Assembly (NCBI RefSeq): GCF_009931435.1
Contig: NZ_CP043414.1
Origin: Escherichia coli
GTDB taxonomy: Bacteria > Pseudomonadota > Gammaproteobacteria > Enterobacterales > Enterobacteriaceae
Strand: one strand, 5' to 3'
Length of the DNA: 64,000 nt
A program made the position numbers and the translations under genes. The notes under the pieces were generated by a model that made no database searches, was not told the origin of the DNA, and worked only from the letters and a program-made list of their open reading frames with translations. Of this stretch, positions 8,461 to 16,750 are shown one piece after another (the stretch's first letter is position 1; each line of letters starts with the position of its first letter).

Positions 8461-11400
8461 GTGTTCAGATTACCAACACCCCGACTATTCAGCGGACTCA
8501 AATCAGCCCTGCGCCCGGCGATGCCCCGGTTTAAAGTTTCTGCATTCTGGCTGCTGATACTGGCGTGGATTTTCCTGCTGGTATGGATCTGGTGGAAAGG
8601 CCCGGCATGGACGCTGGATGAAGAGCAGTGGCTCAAACCACTGGCGAACCGCTGGCTGGCAACGGCGGCGTGGGGGATTATTGCCCTGGTGTGGCTTACC
8701 GTCCGGGTAATGAAGCGCCTGCAACAGCTTGAAAAAATGCAAAAGCAACAGCGCGAGGAAGCCGTTGATCCGCTCAGTGTGGAACTGAACGCCCAGCAGC
8801 GTTACCTCGACCGCTGGCTGCTGCGCCTGCAACGCCATCTCGACAACCGCCGTTTCCTGTGGCAGTTGCCGTGGTATATGGTCATCGGTCCTGTGGGCAG
8901 TGGCAAAACGACACTGCTGCGCGAGGGGTTTCCGTCAGACATTATTTATGCCCCGGAGGGCGCGCACGGCGCAGAACAACGCCTGTACCTCACGCCCCAT
9001 GTCGGTAAACAGGCGGTGATCTTTGATATCGACGGCACACTCTGCGCTCCCGCTGATGCGGATATCCTGCATCGCCGTCTGTGGGAACATGCCCTCGGCT
9101 GGCTGAAGGAAAAGCGCGCGCGCCAGCCGCTGAACGGGATTATTCTGACACTCGATTTACCCGATCTGCTGACCGCAGACAAACGCCGCCGCGAGCATCT
9201 GTTACAGACGCTGCGCAGCCGCTTACAGGATATACGCCAGCATCTTCATTGCCAGTTACCGGTTTACGTGGTACTGACCCGGCTTGATTTATTGCAGGGT
9301 TTTGCCGCCCTGTTTCAGTCACTGAACAGACAGGATCGCGATGCGATTCTGGGTGTTACGTTCACCCGCCGTGCTCATGAAAATGATGACTGGCGAACAG
9401 AGTTGAATGCTTTCTGGCAGACATGGGCGGATCGAATGAATCTGGCGTTGCCGGATCTGATGGTCACCCAGACTCACACCCGCGCGTCTTTATTTAGTTT
9501 TTCCCGCCAGATGCAGGGAAGCCGTGAACCGCTGATATCACTGCTGGAGGGTCTGCTTGACGGCGAAAATATGAACGTGATGCTGCGTGGTGTCTATCTC
9601 ACCTCTTCGCTTCAGCGTGGACAGATGGATGATATATTCACCCAGTCTGCTGCCCGCCAGTACCGACTGGGCAATAACCCACTGGCGTCCTGGCCTCTGG
9701 TGGACACCGCGCCTTATTTCACCCGCAGCCTGTTCCCGCAGGCATTACTCGCAGAGCCTAATCTGGCAACAGAGAGCCGCGCCTGGCTGATGCGTTCCCG
9801 TCGCCGCCTGACGGTTTTCTCTGCCACAGGCGGCGTGGCGGCACTGCTGCTCATCACCGGCTGGAATCACTATTACAACGGTAACTATCAGTCCGGCATC
9901 ACCGTGCTTAAGCAGGCCAAAGCCTTTATGGACGTGCCGCCTCCGCAGGGGGAAGATGACTTTGGTAACCTACAACTGCCGCTGCTGAACCCGGTACGCG
10001 ATGCCACACTGGCCTATGGCGACTGGGGTGACCGCAGCCGCCTGGCCGATATGGGACTGTACCAGGGGCGACGTATCGGGCCTTATGTGGAACAGACCTA
10101 TCTGCAACTGCTGGAGCAGCGTTACCTGCCCTCGCTGTTTAACGGGCTGGTCAAAGCGATGAACGCCGCACCGCCGGAGAGTGAGGAAAAACTCGCGGTG
10201 CTGCGCGTGATGCGAATGCTGGAGGACAAAAGCGGACGCAACAATGAGGTGGTGAAGCAGTATATGGCAAAACGCTGGAGCGAAAAGTTCCACGGACAGC
10301 GCGATATCCAGACACAACTGATGTCCCATCTTGACTACGCGCTGGCTCATACTGACTGGCATGCAGAGCGTCAGGCGGGCGACGGTGATGCCATCAGCCG
10401 CTGGACGCCATATGACAAGCCTGTTGCGACAGCACAGAAAGAACTGAGCAAACTGCCTGTCTACCAGCGGGTTTACCAGAGCCTGAAAACGCGGGCGCTG
10501 GGCGTTCTTCCTGCTGACCTCAATCTGCGTGACCAGGTAGGGCCAACCTTTGACCAGGTGTTTACATCTGCCGATGATAACAAACTGGTTGTTCCACAGT
10601 TTCTTACCCGTTACGGCCTGCAAAGCTATTTTGTAAAACAGCGCGATGAACTGGTTGAACTGACGGCGATGGATTCCTGGGTACTCAACCTCACCCGCAG
10701 CGTGAAATACAGTGACGCCGACCGCGCGGAAATTCAGCGCCAGTTGACCGAGCAGTATATCAGCGACTACACCGCCACCTGGCGGGCCGGGATGGACAAT
10801 CTCAATATCCGCAATTTTGAGTCCATTGGACAACTGACTGGCACTCTGGAGCAGGTTATCAGCGGCGACCAGCCTTTGCAGCGGGCGCTGACCGTGCTGC
10901 GTGACAACACACAGCCAGGCGTCTTTTCTGAAAAACTCTCTGCCAAAGAGCGGGATGAGGCCCTGGCAGAGCCGGATTACCAGTTACTCACCCGCCTCGG
11001 GCATGAATTCGCCCCGGAAAACAGTACCCTGACAGTACAGAAAGACAAAGAAAGCACGATGCAGGCCGTATACCAGCAGCTCACCGAGTTACACCGCTAC
11101 CTGCTGGCAATCCAGAACGCGCCTGTACCAGGGAGATCGGCGCTGAAAGCCGTGCAGTTAAGGCTTGATCAGAACTGCAGCGATCCAATATTCGCCACCC
11201 GCCAGATGGCAAAAACACTGCCTGCTCCGCTCAACCGCTGGGTAGGCAGGCTGGCTGACCAGGCCTGGCATGTGGTGATGGTGGAAGCCGTTCACTATAT
11301 GGAAGTGGACTGGCGCGACAGCGTGGTGAAACCGTTTAACGAGCAACTGGCAAATAACTATCCGTTTAATCCACGTTCTGCACAGGATGCCTCACTGGAT

Positions 11401-11985
11401 GCCTTCGAACGATTCTTTAAACCGGATGGCGTACTGGATACCTTCTACCAGCAGAACCTGAAACTGTTTATCGACAATGATCTGAGCCTGGAAGACGGCG
11501 ATAACAGCGTCATTATCCGCGAAGATATTATTGCGCAACTGGAAACCGCGCAGAAAATCCGTGACATCTTCTTCAGCAAACAGAACGGTCTGGGAACATC
11601 CTTTGCCGTGGAAACGGTATCGCTTTCCGGCAACAAACGCCGCAGCGTACTGAACCTTGACGGCCAGTTAGTCGATTACAGCCAGGGCCGTAACTATACC
11701 GCCCATCTGGTCTGGCCTAACAATATGCGCGAAGGCAACGAAAGCAAACTGACGCTGGTTGGTGCCAGCGGCGGCGCACCGCGCAGTATCAGCTTCAGCG
11801 GGCCGTGGGCGCAGTTCCGCCTGTTCGGGGCCGGACAACTGACCGGAGTACAGGATGGCAACTTTACCGTGCGCTTTAGCGTGGACGGTGGCGCGATGAC
11901 CTACCGTGTGCATACCGACACCGAGGATAACCCGTTCAGCGGTGGGTTGTTCAGCCAGTTTGGTCTGTCAGACACACTGTACTGA
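8461..11985 (+). CDS. tssM: T6SS membrane-complex protein TssM (IcmF family)
   Basis: 1174 aa; N-terminal transmembrane helices, Walker A NTP-binding motif GPVGSGKTTLL and long periplasmic C-terminal region; GTG start preceded by AGGAG at 8451-8455. Confidence 0.9.
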   Translation: MFRLPTPRLFSGLKSALRPAMPRFKVSAFWLLILAWIFLLVWIWWKGPAWTLDEEQWLKPLANRWLATAAWGIIALVWLTVRVMKRLQQLEKMQKQQREEAVDPLSVELNAQQRYLDRWLLRLQRHLDNRRFLWQLPWYMVIGPVGSGKTTLLREGFPSDIIYAPEGAHGAEQRLYLTPHVGKQAVIFDIDGTLCAPADADILHRRLWEHALGWLKEKRARQPLNGIILTLDLPDLLTADKRRREHLLQTLRSRLQDIRQHLHCQLPVYVVLTRLDLLQGFAALFQSLNRQDRDAILGVTFTRRAHENDDWRTELNAFWQTWADRMNLALPDLMVTQTHTRASLFSFSRQMQGSREPLISLLEGLLDGENMNVMLRGVYLTSSLQRGQMDDIFTQSAARQYRLGNNPLASWPLVDTAPYFTRSLFPQALLAEPNLATESRAWLMRSRRRLTVFSATGGVAALLLITGWNHYYNGNYQSGITVLKQAKAFMDVPPPQGEDDFGNLQLPLLNPVRDATLAYGDWGDRSRLADMGLYQGRRIGPYVEQTYLQLLEQRYLPSLFNGLVKAMNAAPPESEEKLAVLRVMRMLEDKSGRNNEVVKQYMAKRWSEKFHGQRDIQTQLMSHLDYALAHTDWHAERQAGDGDAISRWTPYDKPVATAQKELSKLPVYQRVYQSLKTRALGVLPADLNLRDQVGPTFDQVFTSADDNKLVVPQFLTRYGLQSYFVKQRDELVELTAMDSWVLNLTRSVKYSDADRAEIQRQLTEQYISDYTATWRAGMDNLNIRNFESIGQLTGTLEQVISGDQPLQRALTVLRDNTQPGVFSEKLSAKERDEALAEPDYQLLTRLGHEFAPENSTLTVQKDKESTMQAVYQQLTELHRYLLAIQNAPVPGRSALKAVQLRLDQNCSDPIFATRQMAKTLPAPLNRWVGRLADQAWHVVMVEAVHYMEVDWRDSVVKPFNEQLANNYPFNPRSAQDASLDAFERFFKPDGVLDTFYQQNLKLFIDNDLSLEDGDNSVIIREDIIAQLETAQKIRDIFFSKQNGLGTSFAVETVSLSGNKRRSVLNLDGQLVDYSQGRNYTAHLVWPNNMREGNESKLTLVGASGGAPRSISFSGPWAQFRLFGAGQLTGVQDGNFTVRFSVDGGAMTYRVHTDTEDNPFSGGLFSQFGLSDTLY

Positions 11986-11995
11986 GGAGGCAGGG

Positions 11996-13348
11996 ATGAA
12001 TAGTAACGTACTGACACAAACTATCGTTACCGGCAGTGACCCGCGCGGGCTGCCGGAATTCAGCGCCATCCGCGAGGAAATAAACAAAGCCAGCCACCCG
12101 TCACAGCCTGAGCTGAACTGGAAACTGGTGGAGTCGCTGGCGCTGGCGATTTTTAAAGCTAACGGTGTGGATTTACACACCGCCACCTACTATACGCTTG
12201 CACGGACACGGACACAGGGACTGGCGGGCTTTTGCGAAGGTGCGGAACTGCTGGCGGCAATGGTAAGCCACGACTGGGATAAGTTCTGGCCGCAGGGCGG
12301 CCCGGCGCGTACTGAAATGCTGGACTGGTTTAACTCCCGAACCGGCAATATTCTGCGTCAGCAAATCTCCTTTGCGGAATCCGACCTACCACTGATCTAC
12401 CGCACGGAGCGGGCATTGCAGCTTATCTGCGACAAACTCCAGCAGGTAGAGCTGAAGCGCGTTCCGCGCGTGGAGAATCTGCTCTATTTTATGCAGAACA
12501 CGCGTAAACGGCTTGAACCCCAGCCGAAGAGTAACGCCGAGAACACCTCACAGACCACGGTCAGAACGCTGATTTATGCACCGGAAACAATGGCTTCCTC
12601 CACGCCAGAAGCAGTAGTGCCTCCCCTGCCCGACCTGCCCGAGATGAAAGTGGAAGTGCGCAGTCTGTCAGAAAATCCCCCACAGGCCAGTGTGATGAAG
12701 CAAGGCAGTACGGTAAGAGGGTTTATCGCAGGGATCGTCTGTTCAGTGGCTGTCGCCTCAGCATTGTGGTGGTGGCAGGTCTATCCGGTGCAGCAGCAAC
12801 TGTTACAGGTTAACGACACCGCGCAGGGCGCAGCAACGGTGTGGATGGCCTCACCTGAACTCGAAAACTATGAGCGCAGGTTGCAACAGCTTCTTGGCGT
12901 CTCCCCGGTACAACCGCTGGAAACCGGAATGCAGATGATGCGTGTTGCCGACAGTCGCTGGCCGGAAAGCCTGCAACAGCAACAGGCCTCGACACAATGG
13001 AATGAGGCACTCAAAACCCGCGCACAGAGTAGCCCGCAGTTGCGTGGCTGGTTGCAGACCCGCCAGGACTTACATGCTTTTGCAGATCTCGTGATGCAGC
13101 GCGAGAAAGAGGGACTAACCCTTTCCTATATCAAAAATGTCATCTGGCAGGCGGAGCGGGGACTGGGGCAGGAAACACCCCTGGAATCCCTGCTGACGCA
13201 GTACCAGGATGCCCGTGCACAGAAGCAGAATACAGATGCGCTGGAAAAACAAATTAATGAGCGACTCGAAGGCGTGTTAAGCCGCTGGCTGCTGCTGAAG
13301 AATAACGTCATGGCAGAGGCGGCAACCGGGACCACGACCGGAAAATAA
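11996..13348 (+). CDS. T6SS accessory protein, VasL/TagA-like, membrane-anchored
   Basis: About 450 aa from ATG 11996 with GAGGAGG RBS; one internal hydrophobic helix (FIAGIVCSVAVASALWWW); occupies the vasL position immediately after tssM. Confidence 0.55.
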   Translation: MNSNVLTQTIVTGSDPRGLPEFSAIREEINKASHPSQPELNWKLVESLALAIFKANGVDLHTATYYTLARTRTQGLAGFCEGAELLAAMVSHDWDKFWPQGGPARTEMLDWFNSRTGNILRQQISFAESDLPLIYRTERALQLICDKLQQVELKRVPRVENLLYFMQNTRKRLEPQPKSNAENTSQTTVRTLIYAPETMASSTPEAVVPPLPDLPEMKVEVRSLSENPPQASVMKQGSTVRGFIAGIVCSVAVASALWWWQVYPVQQQLLQVNDTAQGAATVWMASPELENYERRLQQLLGVSPVQPLETGMQMMRVADSRWPESLQQQQASTQWNEALKTRAQSSPQLRGWLQTRQDLHAFADLVMQREKEGLTLSYIKNVIWQAERGLGQETPLESLLTQYQDARAQKQNTDALEKQINERLEGVLSRWLLLKNNVMAEAATGTTTGK

Positions 13349-13371
13349 TTATTTAGTTAAAGGAGATTATC

Positions 13372-13854
13372 ATGGCAAATATGAGTTATTTATCTTTAAG
13401 TGGGGAGACACAAGGGCTGATTTCAGCGGGTTGCTCAACGCTTGACTCTGTCGGAAACAAAGCGCAGTTAGAGCATAAAGATCAGATCATGGTTTATGCG
13501 CTAATGCACTCCATCTCAAGAAGTCAGAATGTCAATCATCATGAACTGGTCATCACCAAGCCTGTTGATAAATCCTCACCGTTGCTGGCAAAAGCACTTA
13601 GTGACAATGAAAAAATGACAGCGTGTGAATTTATACTCTACCGAACCAGTAAAGAGGGCATTAACCAGCCTTACTATAAAATAAATCTGTCAAAAGCCAG
13701 GATATCAAGTATTGATTTTGTCACACCTCATGCTGTTCTGGAAAAAGAACTGGAGCCACAGGAGAGAATTGCCTTTATTTATGAAGATATTTCCTGGGAG
13801 CATACGTTAGCCAGGACGAATGCAATGAGTAAATGGCAGGATCGTGTACAGTAA
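13372..13854 (+). CDS. hcp: T6SS tube protein Hcp (TssD)
   Basis: 160 aa; N-terminus MANMSYLSLSGETQG and overall size match the Hcp family; AAGGAG RBS; lower GC than the upstream core genes. Confidence 0.9.
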   Translation: MANMSYLSLSGETQGLISAGCSTLDSVGNKAQLEHKDQIMVYALMHSISRSQNVNHHELVITKPVDKSSPLLAKALSDNEKMTACEFILYRTSKEGINQPYYKINLSKARISSIDFVTPHAVLEKELEPQERIAFIYEDISWEHTLARTNAMSKWQDRVQ

Positions 13855-13896
13855 CATACTGCAATAACATAATAACTTACTATTACGGAGAGATAA

Positions 13897-14811
13897 ATGG
13901 CTGGTTTAAGGAATAATAACAACACACAGAATGCACAGTGGGCTGATTATGTGGGTGACATTCTTCGGGGGTCTCAGCCGATAAACCAGCTAGTACCTCA
14001 GCACCCTTATCTTAACGACATCCCACTCATTGATGAGTTAAGGCGTCAGAACACTCATCATGTTATTCTTTTGACATTTGATGTTGCAAAAAAAATACTC
14101 AACCCAATAACATCATTTGATTACATTCATTTTATCACTACACATCCTTCAGGTATAAAAGATACACTAGCCTGGTTAGTTAACGCGGGTAAATTAATGA
14201 CTGAGTTTGATGAAAATGGGAAAATTATATTTAACCTTAATACCTTAAAGTATACAAAAGCAAGTTACTTTGAAATACTTGGAGAGAAATATATAAAAAT
14301 CACAACATCCAGCCCCTGGCTTTTAGAAAAGCTCGGTAAATATATTTTCTCTTCACGAGCGCCTCAAGTTCTGGAGCTCGCTATTGGCTGGCGAGGAGCT
14401 TTATCTGAATCAATAAAAGGAGTTAAGTTCTGTATCTGGTTTTCAGTAGCCTGGAGAACCATAGAATTTATTATGAGTTCAGAGCGAGATCTGGTTAATT
14501 TTCTTGGTGATTTTTCAATGGATGTGGCCAAAGCAGTGATTGCAGGCGGTGTTGCAACCGCTATTGGAAGCCTGGCTTCTTTTGCCTGTCTTAGTTTTGG
14601 CCTTCCAGTAATTCTTGTAGGAGGAGCAATTTTACTTACAGGGATAGTGTGTACAGTTGTTTTAAATGAAATCGATGCTCAATACCATTTATCAGAAAAA
14701 TTAAAAGATGCAATTAGAGATGGACTAAAACAGCAACAGGAACTTGATAAATGGAAAAGGGAAAACATGACTCCATTTATGTATGTTCTTAACACCCCCC
14801 CCGTGATATGA
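13897..14811 (+). CDS. Hypothetical protein with C-terminal glycine-rich transmembrane helices; candidate T6SS effector
   Basis: 304-aa ORF 42 nt downstream of hcp with RBS; AT-rich; C-terminal third has 2-3 hydrophobic helices with small-residue motifs (VIAGGVATAIGSLASFACLSF, LPVILVGGAILLTGIVCTVVL). The C-terminal 112 codons from an internal ATG at 14473 appear to match what I recall as the K-12 yafU remnant (from memory, unverified). Confidence 0.6.
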   Translation: MAGLRNNNNTQNAQWADYVGDILRGSQPINQLVPQHPYLNDIPLIDELRRQNTHHVILLTFDVAKKILNPITSFDYIHFITTHPSGIKDTLAWLVNAGKLMTEFDENGKIIFNLNTLKYTKASYFEILGEKYIKITTSSPWLLEKLGKYIFSSRAPQVLELAIGWRGALSESIKGVKFCIWFSVAWRTIEFIMSSERDLVNFLGDFSMDVAKAVIAGGVATAIGSLASFACLSFGLPVILVGGAILLTGIVCTVVLNEIDAQYHLSEKLKDAIRDGLKQQQELDKWKRENMTPFMYVLNTPPVI

Positions 14812-14820
14812 GGATTAACT

Positions 14821-15288
14821 ATGTGTTTACATGTTAAATTGAAAGAGTTTCTTTCGATGTTTTTTATAGCCATGTTATTTTTCCCTGCATTCAATGCTTC
14901 TTTGTTTTTTACCGGAATTAAACCTCTATACTCAATAATAAAAGGCTCCACGGAAATATTTTATGATTGGAGAATGTTGATTCTATTCTTCGGTTTCATA
15001 TCGTTTTCCTTGTTAAATATTCATGTAATTTTACTAACGATAATAAAATCATTCTTAATAAAAAAAACAAAGGTAATCAATTTCGCCACAAACATAACAA
15101 TACAGCTAACTCTTATATTTTTACTAATAGCTATCGTAATAGCACCTTTAATAGCTCCTTTTGTCACAGGATATGTCAATGCTAATTATCACCTCTGCGG
15201 TAATAACACGGGGATTTTCCCAGGAGCAATCTATATTAAAAATGGCATGGAATGTAATAATGATTATATTTCTCACAAGGAAGATTAA
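14821..15288 (+). CDS. Small polytopic inner-membrane protein; candidate immunity protein (possibly the ykfM homologue)
   Basis: 155 aa, extremely AT-rich, at least three predicted transmembrane helices; starts 9 nt after the stop of the 304-aa gene. Position relative to yafT and aspV matches my recollection of K-12 ykfM. Confidence 0.55.
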   Translation: MCLHVKLKEFLSMFFIAMLFFPAFNASLFFTGIKPLYSIIKGSTEIFYDWRMLILFFGFISFSLLNIHVILLTIIKSFLIKKTKVINFATNITIQLTLIFLLIAIVIAPLIAPFVTGYVNANYHLCGNNTGIFPGAIYIKNGMECNNDYISHKED

Positions 15289-15429
15289 GCAGTTAAATAT
15301 TATAAAACAAACAGTTTTTAACTCCGGATTCCATGTCCTTTTTTGCACTGTCTTTGTCAGGAAAAAATTTCTTATGCAAAGAATTTTGTATTATTGCCGC
15401 CAGAAATCCCTGCCGGCAGATATAATTTA

Positions 15430-16215
15430 TTATTGATAGCGGTTAACCAAATCTTTTACCATCGCTTTATAGGTCTTTTGCTTAAGTTGCATGATTTGCT
15501 GCTCTGTCATATCAGTCGTACTGGCTTCATTCTTGCCGGGCAATGGTGGAAGCACTTTATATTCATAATTCATCGGCGACCAGGCAGCCCACTCACCTGT
15601 AGCTACATCCACCAGCGTGAATCGCACCAGATAGCGCAGTGAGATTGTGTTAGTCAGTTTTTCATTTTTATAATCGGACCATACTGTTGATTTCAGCGCA
15701 GAGTCATATTTTCCTGTCTGCAACGTATCATGGTAAACAATAATCGCTTTCTGATGCCCTTTCGCAGCCACAAAACGCAATGCCTGCATCCAGTTCATAT
15801 TTTCAGCACTGGCAACATCCTCGTTCTCATTTTTATCTTTATTTTTGTTACAAGTCAGAGGCTTTTGCCTGTCCGGGATACCAGAGAATGTGGAAACAGT
15901 ATAATATTTTCTCATCTCCTCCTGCATAATGGTTTCCGGTGCGCGACTGCCAGACTGGACAAGTATTACGGGAGAATTGAGAGGCACACGAAACTCATCT
16001 CCTTCAAGCGCAGCCTGAATATCCTCCTCGGATACAGCCAGAGTGGTTTCATTACCGAATAAATCTTTGTCTGTCAGTTGCGGGGGAATGTTTTTATTAA
16101 TATTACTTTGTGTAACCTGAGCTTTTTTCTTTTTTTCATCAATAGAAGATTGAGAGGCACATCCTGCAAGCAGCGAGAATAATACACATATGCAACAAAC
16201 CTTTTTTGAATTCAT
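15430..16215 (-). CDS. yafT: Lipoprotein YafT
   Basis: 261 aa with signal peptide and lipobox (LLAGC); size and location next to aspV correspond to yafT of the E. coli backbone. Confidence 0.65.
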
Positions 16216-16540: not shown

Positions 16541-16617
16541 TTGGCGGAACGGACGGGACTCGAACCCGCGACCCCCTGCGTGACAGGCAGGTATTCTAAC
16601 CGACTGAACTACCGCTC
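16541..16617 (-). tRNA. aspV: tRNA-Asp (anticodon GUC)
   Basis: 77-nt exact match in reverse complement to E. coli tRNA-Asp (GGAGCGGTAGTTCAGTCGGTTAGAATACCTGCCTGTCACGCAGGGGGTCGCGGGTTCGAGTCCCGTCCGTTCCGCCA). Confidence 0.95.
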
Positions 16618-16750
16618 CGCGTTGTGTTCCGTTGGGAACGAGGCGAATATTACGGATTGCCTCACCCTTCGTCAATGGTTTTTCTCATCTTTTGAATCGT
16701 TTGCTGCAAAAATCGCCCAAGTCGCTATTTTTAGCGCCTTTTACAGGTAT

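Follow-up and report, generated by a model that had tools for sequence, protein, structure and literature searches.

A Tme/Tmi effector and immunity pair behind hcp in an Escherichia coli type VI secretion cluster, and its counterparts yafU and ykfM in K-12

Background

What does an Escherichia coli type VI secretion system (T6SS) cluster carry directly behind hcp, and what would the products do? The question is raised by a 64,000-nt stretch of contig NZ_CP043414.1 (the whole of which is called the window), in which hcp is followed by a 304-aa open reading frame (ORF) and then by a 155-aa ORF, ykfM. An earlier reading made from the letters alone (the sequence-only reading) had proposed a membrane-targeting T6SS effector and, next to it, a membrane protein conferring immunity, both in an exchangeable, AT-rich module, a proposal supported by the family membership and context reported here. 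The same reading had called the effector undescribed and without an assigned function, which does not stand: the exact protein, WP_032183276.1, and the common E. coli alleles are catalogued as Tme in Suppl. Data 5 of Fridman et al. 2020 (Nat Commun, PMC7046647), the paper that defined the Tme family (Type VI membrane-disrupting effector). Judged by its sequence, the window pair is an E. coli member of the published Tme/Tmi family; it was already catalogued, and the prediction was right though not new. On the evidence below, 13897-14811 probably encodes a Tme effector and ykfM its cognate Tmi, the former acting by T6SS-delivered disruption of the inner membrane and the latter protecting against it. 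The consequence is mainly an annotation correction: the proteins that RefSeq names 'hypothetical protein' (the toxin) and 'protein YkfM', which occur in E. coli genomes by the thousand, are members of a published toxin/immunity family.

A Tme-family effector

13897..14811, + strand: tme, encoding a 304-aa Tme-family T6SS membrane-disrupting effector, the full-length form of K-12 yafU (100% identical to WP_032183276.1)
14260..14727, + strand: Tme toxin domain, aa 122-277 of 304 (limits from Fridman 2020 Suppl. Data 5; profile-match core 120-280)

In the published table, WP_032183276.1 is a Tme-domain protein with the domain at residues 122-277 (E 5.28e-38), Hcp encoded 42 nt upstream and a 155-aa protein with three transmembrane helices (3-TM) encoded 9 nt downstream (PMC7046647 Suppl. 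Data 5). The match to the authors' position-specific scoring matrix is by identity with this listed protein, rather than by a direct run of the matrix, which was built from Tme1 residues 161-310 (PMC7046647). For three other E. coli 304-aa Tme proteins, WP_000908051, WP_000908052 and WP_000908057, the table gives Hcp at 43 nt upstream and, at 9 nt downstream, a 3-TM protein of 159 aa (PMC7046647). Direct Pfam and NCBIfam scans of the 304-aa and 155-aa proteins returned nothing usable. With the 304-aa protein as query, a homologue search gave a narrow set from E. coli, Salmonella and Rahnella, and a profile search over 1.8 billion cluster representatives gave 702 matches at E <= 0.001, their common core being query positions 120-280. 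Distant members of this set have N-terminal PAAR or DUF4280 domains, in support of the family assignment.

Gene neighbourhoods were taken from the published survey and from seven fetched contexts. In Salmonella, Rahnella and metagenomic enterobacteria, the gene after the homologue encodes a PF06836 (DUF1240) protein, and hcp is mostly adjacent; Hcp is encoded directly upstream of tme in the E. coli and Salmonella loci and in two further loci (L010 and L011). Of 5426 complete E. coli genomes, 2561 have a match to tme at 80% coverage or more, annotated as 'hypothetical protein' in all of them; the collection is biased to laboratory and outbreak strains, and its counts are not population frequencies. 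The gene is under purifying selection, the ratio of nonsynonymous to synonymous substitution rates (dN/dS) being 0.20-0.26 over both short and long divergence.

Motif and predicted structure

14491..14685, + strand: hydrophobic helical hairpin, helices at aa 199-234 and 238-263 with a turn at P237, D209-V-A-K212 before and D260 after (AlphaFold2, hydropathy and conservation)
13897..14019, + strand: conserved N-terminal segment, aa 1-41 (W15..Y18.G20..LRG..P.NQL.PQH.Y38), a candidate delivery or recombination handle (near-identity across divergent homologues)

The published Tme motif is a nearly invariant DxxK followed by a transmembrane helix that is flanked by another D (PMC7046647). The window protein has this motif as D209-V-A-K212, a hydrophobic stretch at 213-259 and D260, and in an alignment of 114 sequences conservation reaches at least 90% at D209, K212 and D260 and also at G129, G164 and G175. 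A 19-residue Kyte-Doolittle scan found nothing hydrophobic before residue 213 and a strong stretch at 213-259 that contains both helices quoted in the sequence-only reading; the soluble N-terminal region and hydrophobic C-terminal helices that it described are present as it had them. With the 114-sequence alignment, AlphaFold2 predicted residues 163-300 as confident long helices, with block values of the predicted local distance difference test (pLDDT) of 79-95 across the hairpin region. The pLDDT rose from 43.5 with a 10-sequence alignment to 73.4 with 114 sequences, the confidence lying mainly in the C-terminal helices. When a colicin-type pore-forming domain was considered, no fold similarity to a solved pore-forming domain was detected.

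Residues 1 to ~41 are nearly identical even among homologues that are 34-37% identical overall. When the first 68 residues were searched by themselves, the matches were E. coli-type fragments only, and the head was not found there on other toxin domains.

Two natural deletion fusions were seen in which the toxin domain is excised. In one (P0028), Tme residues 1-99 are joined to the last 28 residues of YkfM; in the other (P0102), a Tme-like N-terminus is joined to a DUF1240-like membrane protein.

YkfM, the probable immunity protein

14821..15288, + strand: tmi (ykfM), encoding a 155-aa three-helix inner-membrane DUF1240-like immunity protein (RefSeq 'protein YkfM'; 100% identical to WP_032183275.1)

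DUF1240 and DUF1240-like proteins were redefined by Fridman et al. as the Tmi immunity family of Tme, the members of which are encoded directly downstream of Tme and have three to six predicted transmembrane helices (PMC7046647). YkfM is encoded after a 9-nt gap and has three hydrophobic segments in a hydropathy scan (10-33, 51-81 and 85-121), in keeping with the polytopic membrane protein read from the letters. A Pfam scan of YkfM matched no family at E <= 1, PF06836 (DUF1240) included, and because of this YkfM is, on sequence grounds, termed 'DUF1240-like' rather than a scored DUF1240 member. The Salmonella neighbour protein, to which its identity is 49% (E 2e-44), has a PF06836 match on record, as does another protein 69% identical to YkfM. 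An hhalign comparison of the YkfM alignment with the DUF1240-type neighbours of five other Tme homologues gave a probability of 98.8% (E 1.2e-16), the conserved part of which is a tail, Y..C...G.F.G..Y.K....C. This tail is predicted to face the periplasm, because the Phobius topology given for the 155-aa protein in the paper's table is i12-33o53-75i96-115o (PMC7046647), and it may have a role in binding Tme. The dN/dS of tmi is 0.16-0.49, and this gene too is under purifying selection.

Proposed mode of action

The proposed course of events would begin when the T6SS encoded upstream fires and places Tme into the periplasm of a neighbouring Gram-negative cell. The small-residue-rich hairpin (aa ~199-263, bracketed by D209-x-x-K212 and D260) of its Tme domain (aa 122-277) would then enter the inner membrane from the periplasm. 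Insertion is expected to dissipate the membrane potential and make the membrane leaky, so that growth would stop without lysis. Sister cells would be shielded by YkfM in the inner membrane, the three-helix protein whose Cys-containing, conserved and predicted periplasmic C-terminal tail would neutralise the cognate Tme only. Delivery is probably through the co-inherited Hcp, with the first ~41 residues of Tme as the likely handle. The precedent is provided by Tme1 and Tme2 of Vibrio, which show hcp-dependent T6SS secretion and periplasmic toxicity without lysis, dissipate the membrane potential, admit propidium iodide and are countered by the cognate Tmi only (PMC7046647). The E. coli pair would have the same toxic activity; the Hcp-dependent route and the roles given above to the N-terminal segment and the YkfM tail are likewise inferred.

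A number of points weigh against this proposal. No experiment on the E. coli Tme/Tmi pair was found in the searchable literature. At 304 aa, Tme exceeds the small cargo usually thought to fit the Hcp ring, which makes the Hcp route uncertain. G and R, which occupy two of the eight near-invariant family positions in more than 90% of relatives (in the '...TGYAGLRRIL.GTRY' segment), are replaced by T137 and L143 in the E. coli/Salmonella clade. Confidence is low in the N-terminal half of the AlphaFold2 model, and searches of the Protein Data Bank (PDB) by sequence and by fold, with the Tme model and family, returned nothing significant. The negative Pfam result for YkfM belongs here as well, as does one homologous pair (locus L008) that lies far from any T6SS gene, with no hcp, within the 6 kb of flank examined. 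In the published survey, a full T6SS was absent from 23% of Tme-encoding genomes (PMC7046647).

The hcp-cargo-immunity cassette

13300..15561, + strand: exchangeable hcp-cargo-immunity cassette, from the 3' end of tagA to the 3' end of yafT (identity drop against O157:H7, blastn return, and G+C fall from 0.56 to 0.30-0.41)
13372..13854, + strand: hcp (tssD), encoding the T6SS tube protein, 160 aa (Pfam PF05638, E 7.6e-24; TIGR03344, E 5.3e-61)

When the window is compared with E. coli O157:H7, identity in 100-nt sliding windows falls from 99% to ~60-69% near 13300, at the end of tagA, and blastn homology returns at 15561; against a uropathogenic E. coli (UPEC) strain it returns at 15431. Hcp lies inside the replaced interval, being 54% (O157) and 56% (UPEC) identical to that of the window, as against 91% and 72% for the neighbouring TagA. 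Read from these comparisons, the unit of exchange within E. coli is hcp, cargo and immunity gene together. Linkage of Hcp to the cargo is also seen in Rahnella, in which an orphan hcp adjoins the tme-tmi pair.

The same slot in L011, from an enterobacterium ~77% identical in DNA, holds a Tme allele of 36% identity with its own DUF1240 gene. DNA homology between the window and L011 spans hcp and ends at 14018, which is tme codon 41, and the divergent tme/tmi allele has only the first ~41 codons in common with window tme. The conserved 41-residue head is also duplicated in front of the second, truncated tme copy of Salmonella. As far as can be read from sequence, cassette exchange, the codon-41 allele junction and the Salmonella duplication favour, without proving, Hcp-dependent loading in which the N-terminal head would be the handle.

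The contents of the slot vary further. In O157:H7 (L013 3529-5377, equivalent to window 13372-15288) the 54%-identical Hcp precedes two hypothetical proteins, of 73 aa and 198 aa, and a DUF1311 protein, which may be a different Hcp-linked effector/immunity set. In the UPEC B2-type strain (L014 5059-5877), ~340 nt without gene annotation separate the 56%-identical Hcp from yafT, and its cargo slot appears to be empty. In Salmonella enterica (L006 11478-13010), an orphan-module array follows the first tme-tmi: a duplicated hcp 3' fragment, a second tme (169 aa, truncated and of the divergent allele type), a 43-aa ORF and another DUF1240 gene. Two E. coli plasmids from chicken meat, CP044307.1 and CP044308.1, have unannotated tblastn matches (H72 and H74) 49.5% and 36.6% identical to Tme, which may be plasmid-borne Tme alleles.

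Alternative explanations

The alternative nearest to Hcp-dependent delivery has the same Tme toxin loaded on the VgrG/PAAR spike, directly or by an adaptor, so that tme would stand next to hcp only because a recombination hot spot lies there. That the toxin domain can ride the spike is indicated by distant, longer Tme matches with an N-terminal PAAR (PF05488) or DUF4280 domain (P0059, P0065, P0070, P0085 and P0159), by a Pantoea relative of Tme, found by tblastn in the plasmid collection, that falls within an annotated PAAR protein, and by the PAAR, VgrG and MIX fusions reported previously (PMC7046647). The L008 pair, with no hcp in the 6 kb of flank examined, points the same way, and the PAAR-fused relatives together with the size of Tme (~34 kDa) keep this route open. 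Against it stand the exchange of the whole of hcp with its cargo within E. coli next to a 91%-identical tagA, the orphan hcp beside tme-tmi in Rahnella and the position of Hcp directly upstream in E. coli, Salmonella, L010 and L011, and spike loading is considered the less likely route. A less probable alternative is that the E. coli allele is a relic, decayed or inactive: the frame would be intact but its product not toxic, or the pair would have lost its use of a functional T6SS. The low dN/dS of tme over short and long divergence, its presence at no less than 80% coverage in 2561 complete genomes, the intact DxxK...D motif and hairpin and the uninterrupted tssM of the window speak against decay; its appeal lies in the loss of the near-invariant G137 and R143 from the clade, the frameshifted tssM of the closest RefSeq relative and of the O157 strain examined, and the frequency of truncations and deletion fusions. 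This explanation is regarded as improbable.

It is more improbable still that the pair is a T6SS-independent membrane toxin/antidote pair, or an accessory membrane component of the T6SS, that merely sits at the edge of the cluster. The T6SS core is kept in E. coli strains whose slot is empty or filled with unrelated cargo, and the pair is therefore not a structural part. Relatives are fused to PAAR, hcp and vgrG are present in 99.7% of Tme-encoding genomes, and the secretion of Tme1 and Tme2 depends on hcp (PMC7046647). What speaks for an independent or accessory role is that the window protein would be linked to secretion by analogy, that it has transmembrane-like helices, as do some accessory proteins, and that the L008 pair lies apart from T6SS genes.

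Counterparts in K-12 and possible orphan immunity

14455, no strand: point where K-12-type genomes begin matching, a truncation beside an ISAs1 remnant (homology start in a K-12-type genome)

The sequence-only reading had equated the C-terminal part of the 304-aa protein with K-12 yafU and its neighbour with ykfM, in which case K-12, which has no T6SS, would keep a truncated effector and an orphan immunity gene. The correspondence holds, and the second point is supported. In a K-12-type genome, the match to the window starts at 14455; the RefSeq annotation there has a pseudogene (238746-239102, 'missing N-terminus') followed in turn by ykfM, a lipoprotein gene (yafT), tRNA-Asp and dnaQ, and the yafU ATG at 14473 corresponds to M193 of the 304-aa protein, which leaves 112 codons. 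A review describes K-12 as lacking a T6SS and leaves the yafU and ykfM remnants unmentioned. The pseudogene name has spread to other genera: a full-length Tme homologue of Xenorhabdus innexi (P0035) is labelled 'Inner membrane protein yafU' in UniRef, a case of the K-12 name being propagated to intact toxins.

Among the complete E. coli genomes, ykfM is found in 2997 and near-full-length tme in 2561, and ~436 genomes, K-12 derivatives included, therefore have an orphan immunity gene. In assays of T6SS killing the prey is usually E. coli, and K-12, despite having no T6SS, retains ykfM and the C-terminal stump of the toxin, yafU; if ykfM works as an orphan Tmi, the standard laboratory 'prey' would be protected from Tme. 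The K-12 remnants thus offer a concrete and cheap test of orphan immunity. A broader reading in three joint parts is put forward tentatively: that ykfM in K-12 and ~8% of complete E. coli genomes may be a working orphan Tmi, shielding toxin-less strains from the roughly half of E. coli armed with Tme; that hcp-tme-tmi may be a self-contained, swap-in weapon cassette; and that the 41-residue Tme head may be a specific handle for its own Hcp.

Identification of yafU/ykfM as Tme/Tmi, and an experimental test of the E. coli pair, seem to be unrecognised in the searchable literature. No literature on yafU or ykfM with T6SS terms was found, nor a paper combining 'yafU' and 'type VI secretion', in a search that left out subscription journals and is weak evidence to that extent. 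Two studies of ykfM make no link to T6SS immunity. A 2010 study found a ykfM::Tn5 mutant to be killed more readily by nalidixic acid, and a 2025 study described ykfM as 'an uncharacterized membrane protein', guessed it to be a porin and found its mutation occurrence to be the highest under three antibiotic conditions. The Tmi assignment would offer a functional context for ykfM.

Locus layout and T6SS setting

13887..13890, + strand: GGAG, the ribosome-binding site of tme, 6 nt ahead of its start codon (read from sequence)
15430..16215, - strand: yafT lipoprotein gene, right flank of the cassette (ORF; RefSeq names relatives yafT or 'lipoprotein'; PF25851:YafT on the orthologues in L006, Salmonella enterica, and L011, another enterobacterium)
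16542..16618, - strand: tRNA-Asp (GTC), chromosomal landmark of the island (ARAGORN)

The ORF map (hcp 13372-13854, the 304-aa ORF 13897-14811 and the 155-aa ORF 14821-15288) has gaps of 42 nt after hcp and 9 nt between the two ORFs, and agrees exactly with the positions, spacing and separate ribosome-binding site read earlier, GGAG standing 6 nt before the ATG. Ahead of the 155-aa ORF, a GAGG read from the sequence overlaps the preceding stop codon. When 13200-15500 was scanned for promoters and terminators, sites were no more numerous than in shuffled sequence, and no separate immunity promoter or terminator is claimed. The hcp product differs from WP_032183277.1 at one residue. Both cargo genes had also been read as more AT-rich than the T6SS core, and their G+C contents (0.38 for the 304-aa gene and 0.30 for the 155-aa gene, vs 0.56-0.57 for tssM and tagA) agree; hcp is low too, at 0.41.

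Upstream of hcp lies the T6SS core, with the TagH C-terminal domain, TssJ, TssK, TssL, ClpV, VasI, TssA, TssM and a VasL-domain TagA (TagA/VasL); yafT, tRNA-Asp, dnaQ and rnhA make up the downstream flank. The tssM gene (window 8461-11985) is an uninterrupted 1174-aa ORF here, and is annotated as frameshifted in the closest RefSeq relative (L002, a 99.3% identical locus) and in the O157 strain examined (L013).

Comparison with known systems

The nearest known systems are Tme1/Tmi1 and Tme2/Tmi2 of the Vibrio parahaemolyticus T6SS1 (PMC7046647), with which the E. coli pair shares the toxin domain family, its C-terminal location, the DxxK, transmembrane helix and flanking D, a DUF1240-like multi-helix membrane protein encoded downstream (in E. 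coli after 9 nt) and linkage to a T6SS. In contrast to the Vibrio proteins, the N-terminal region of E. coli Tme is unrelated to named delivery domains and has its own conserved 41-residue head, the gene stands directly after hcp inside the main cluster, the clade does not have the G137 and R143 of the family, and the protein is known here from its sequence. YkfM resembles DUF1240 (PF06836) in its three hydrophobic helices, its Y..C...G.F.G..Y.K....C tail, the 98.8% hhalign probability and the PF06836 matches of relatives 49-69% identical to it, and differs in having no match to the Pfam model at E <= 1.

VasX of V. cholerae and Tse4 of P. aeruginosa, the latter Hcp-dependent, are alike in the membrane depolarisation expected from action in the periplasm and in having membrane immunity proteins, whereas no sequence or fold relationship to them was detected in the Tme searches. 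VasX served as the positive control for Tme, and the Tme authors call their family distinct (PMC7046647). Finally, the locus recalls the orphan immunity and effector-immunity cassette replacement at T6SS loci of Kirchberger et al. 2017, as that work is presented in PMC6730261: an immunity gene is kept after effector loss (ykfM in K-12), a second truncated effector stands with a second immunity gene (Salmonella), and a conserved 5' segment lies at the exchange junction. Compared with the replacement in the form presented there, the unit exchanged in E. coli also takes in the whole of hcp.

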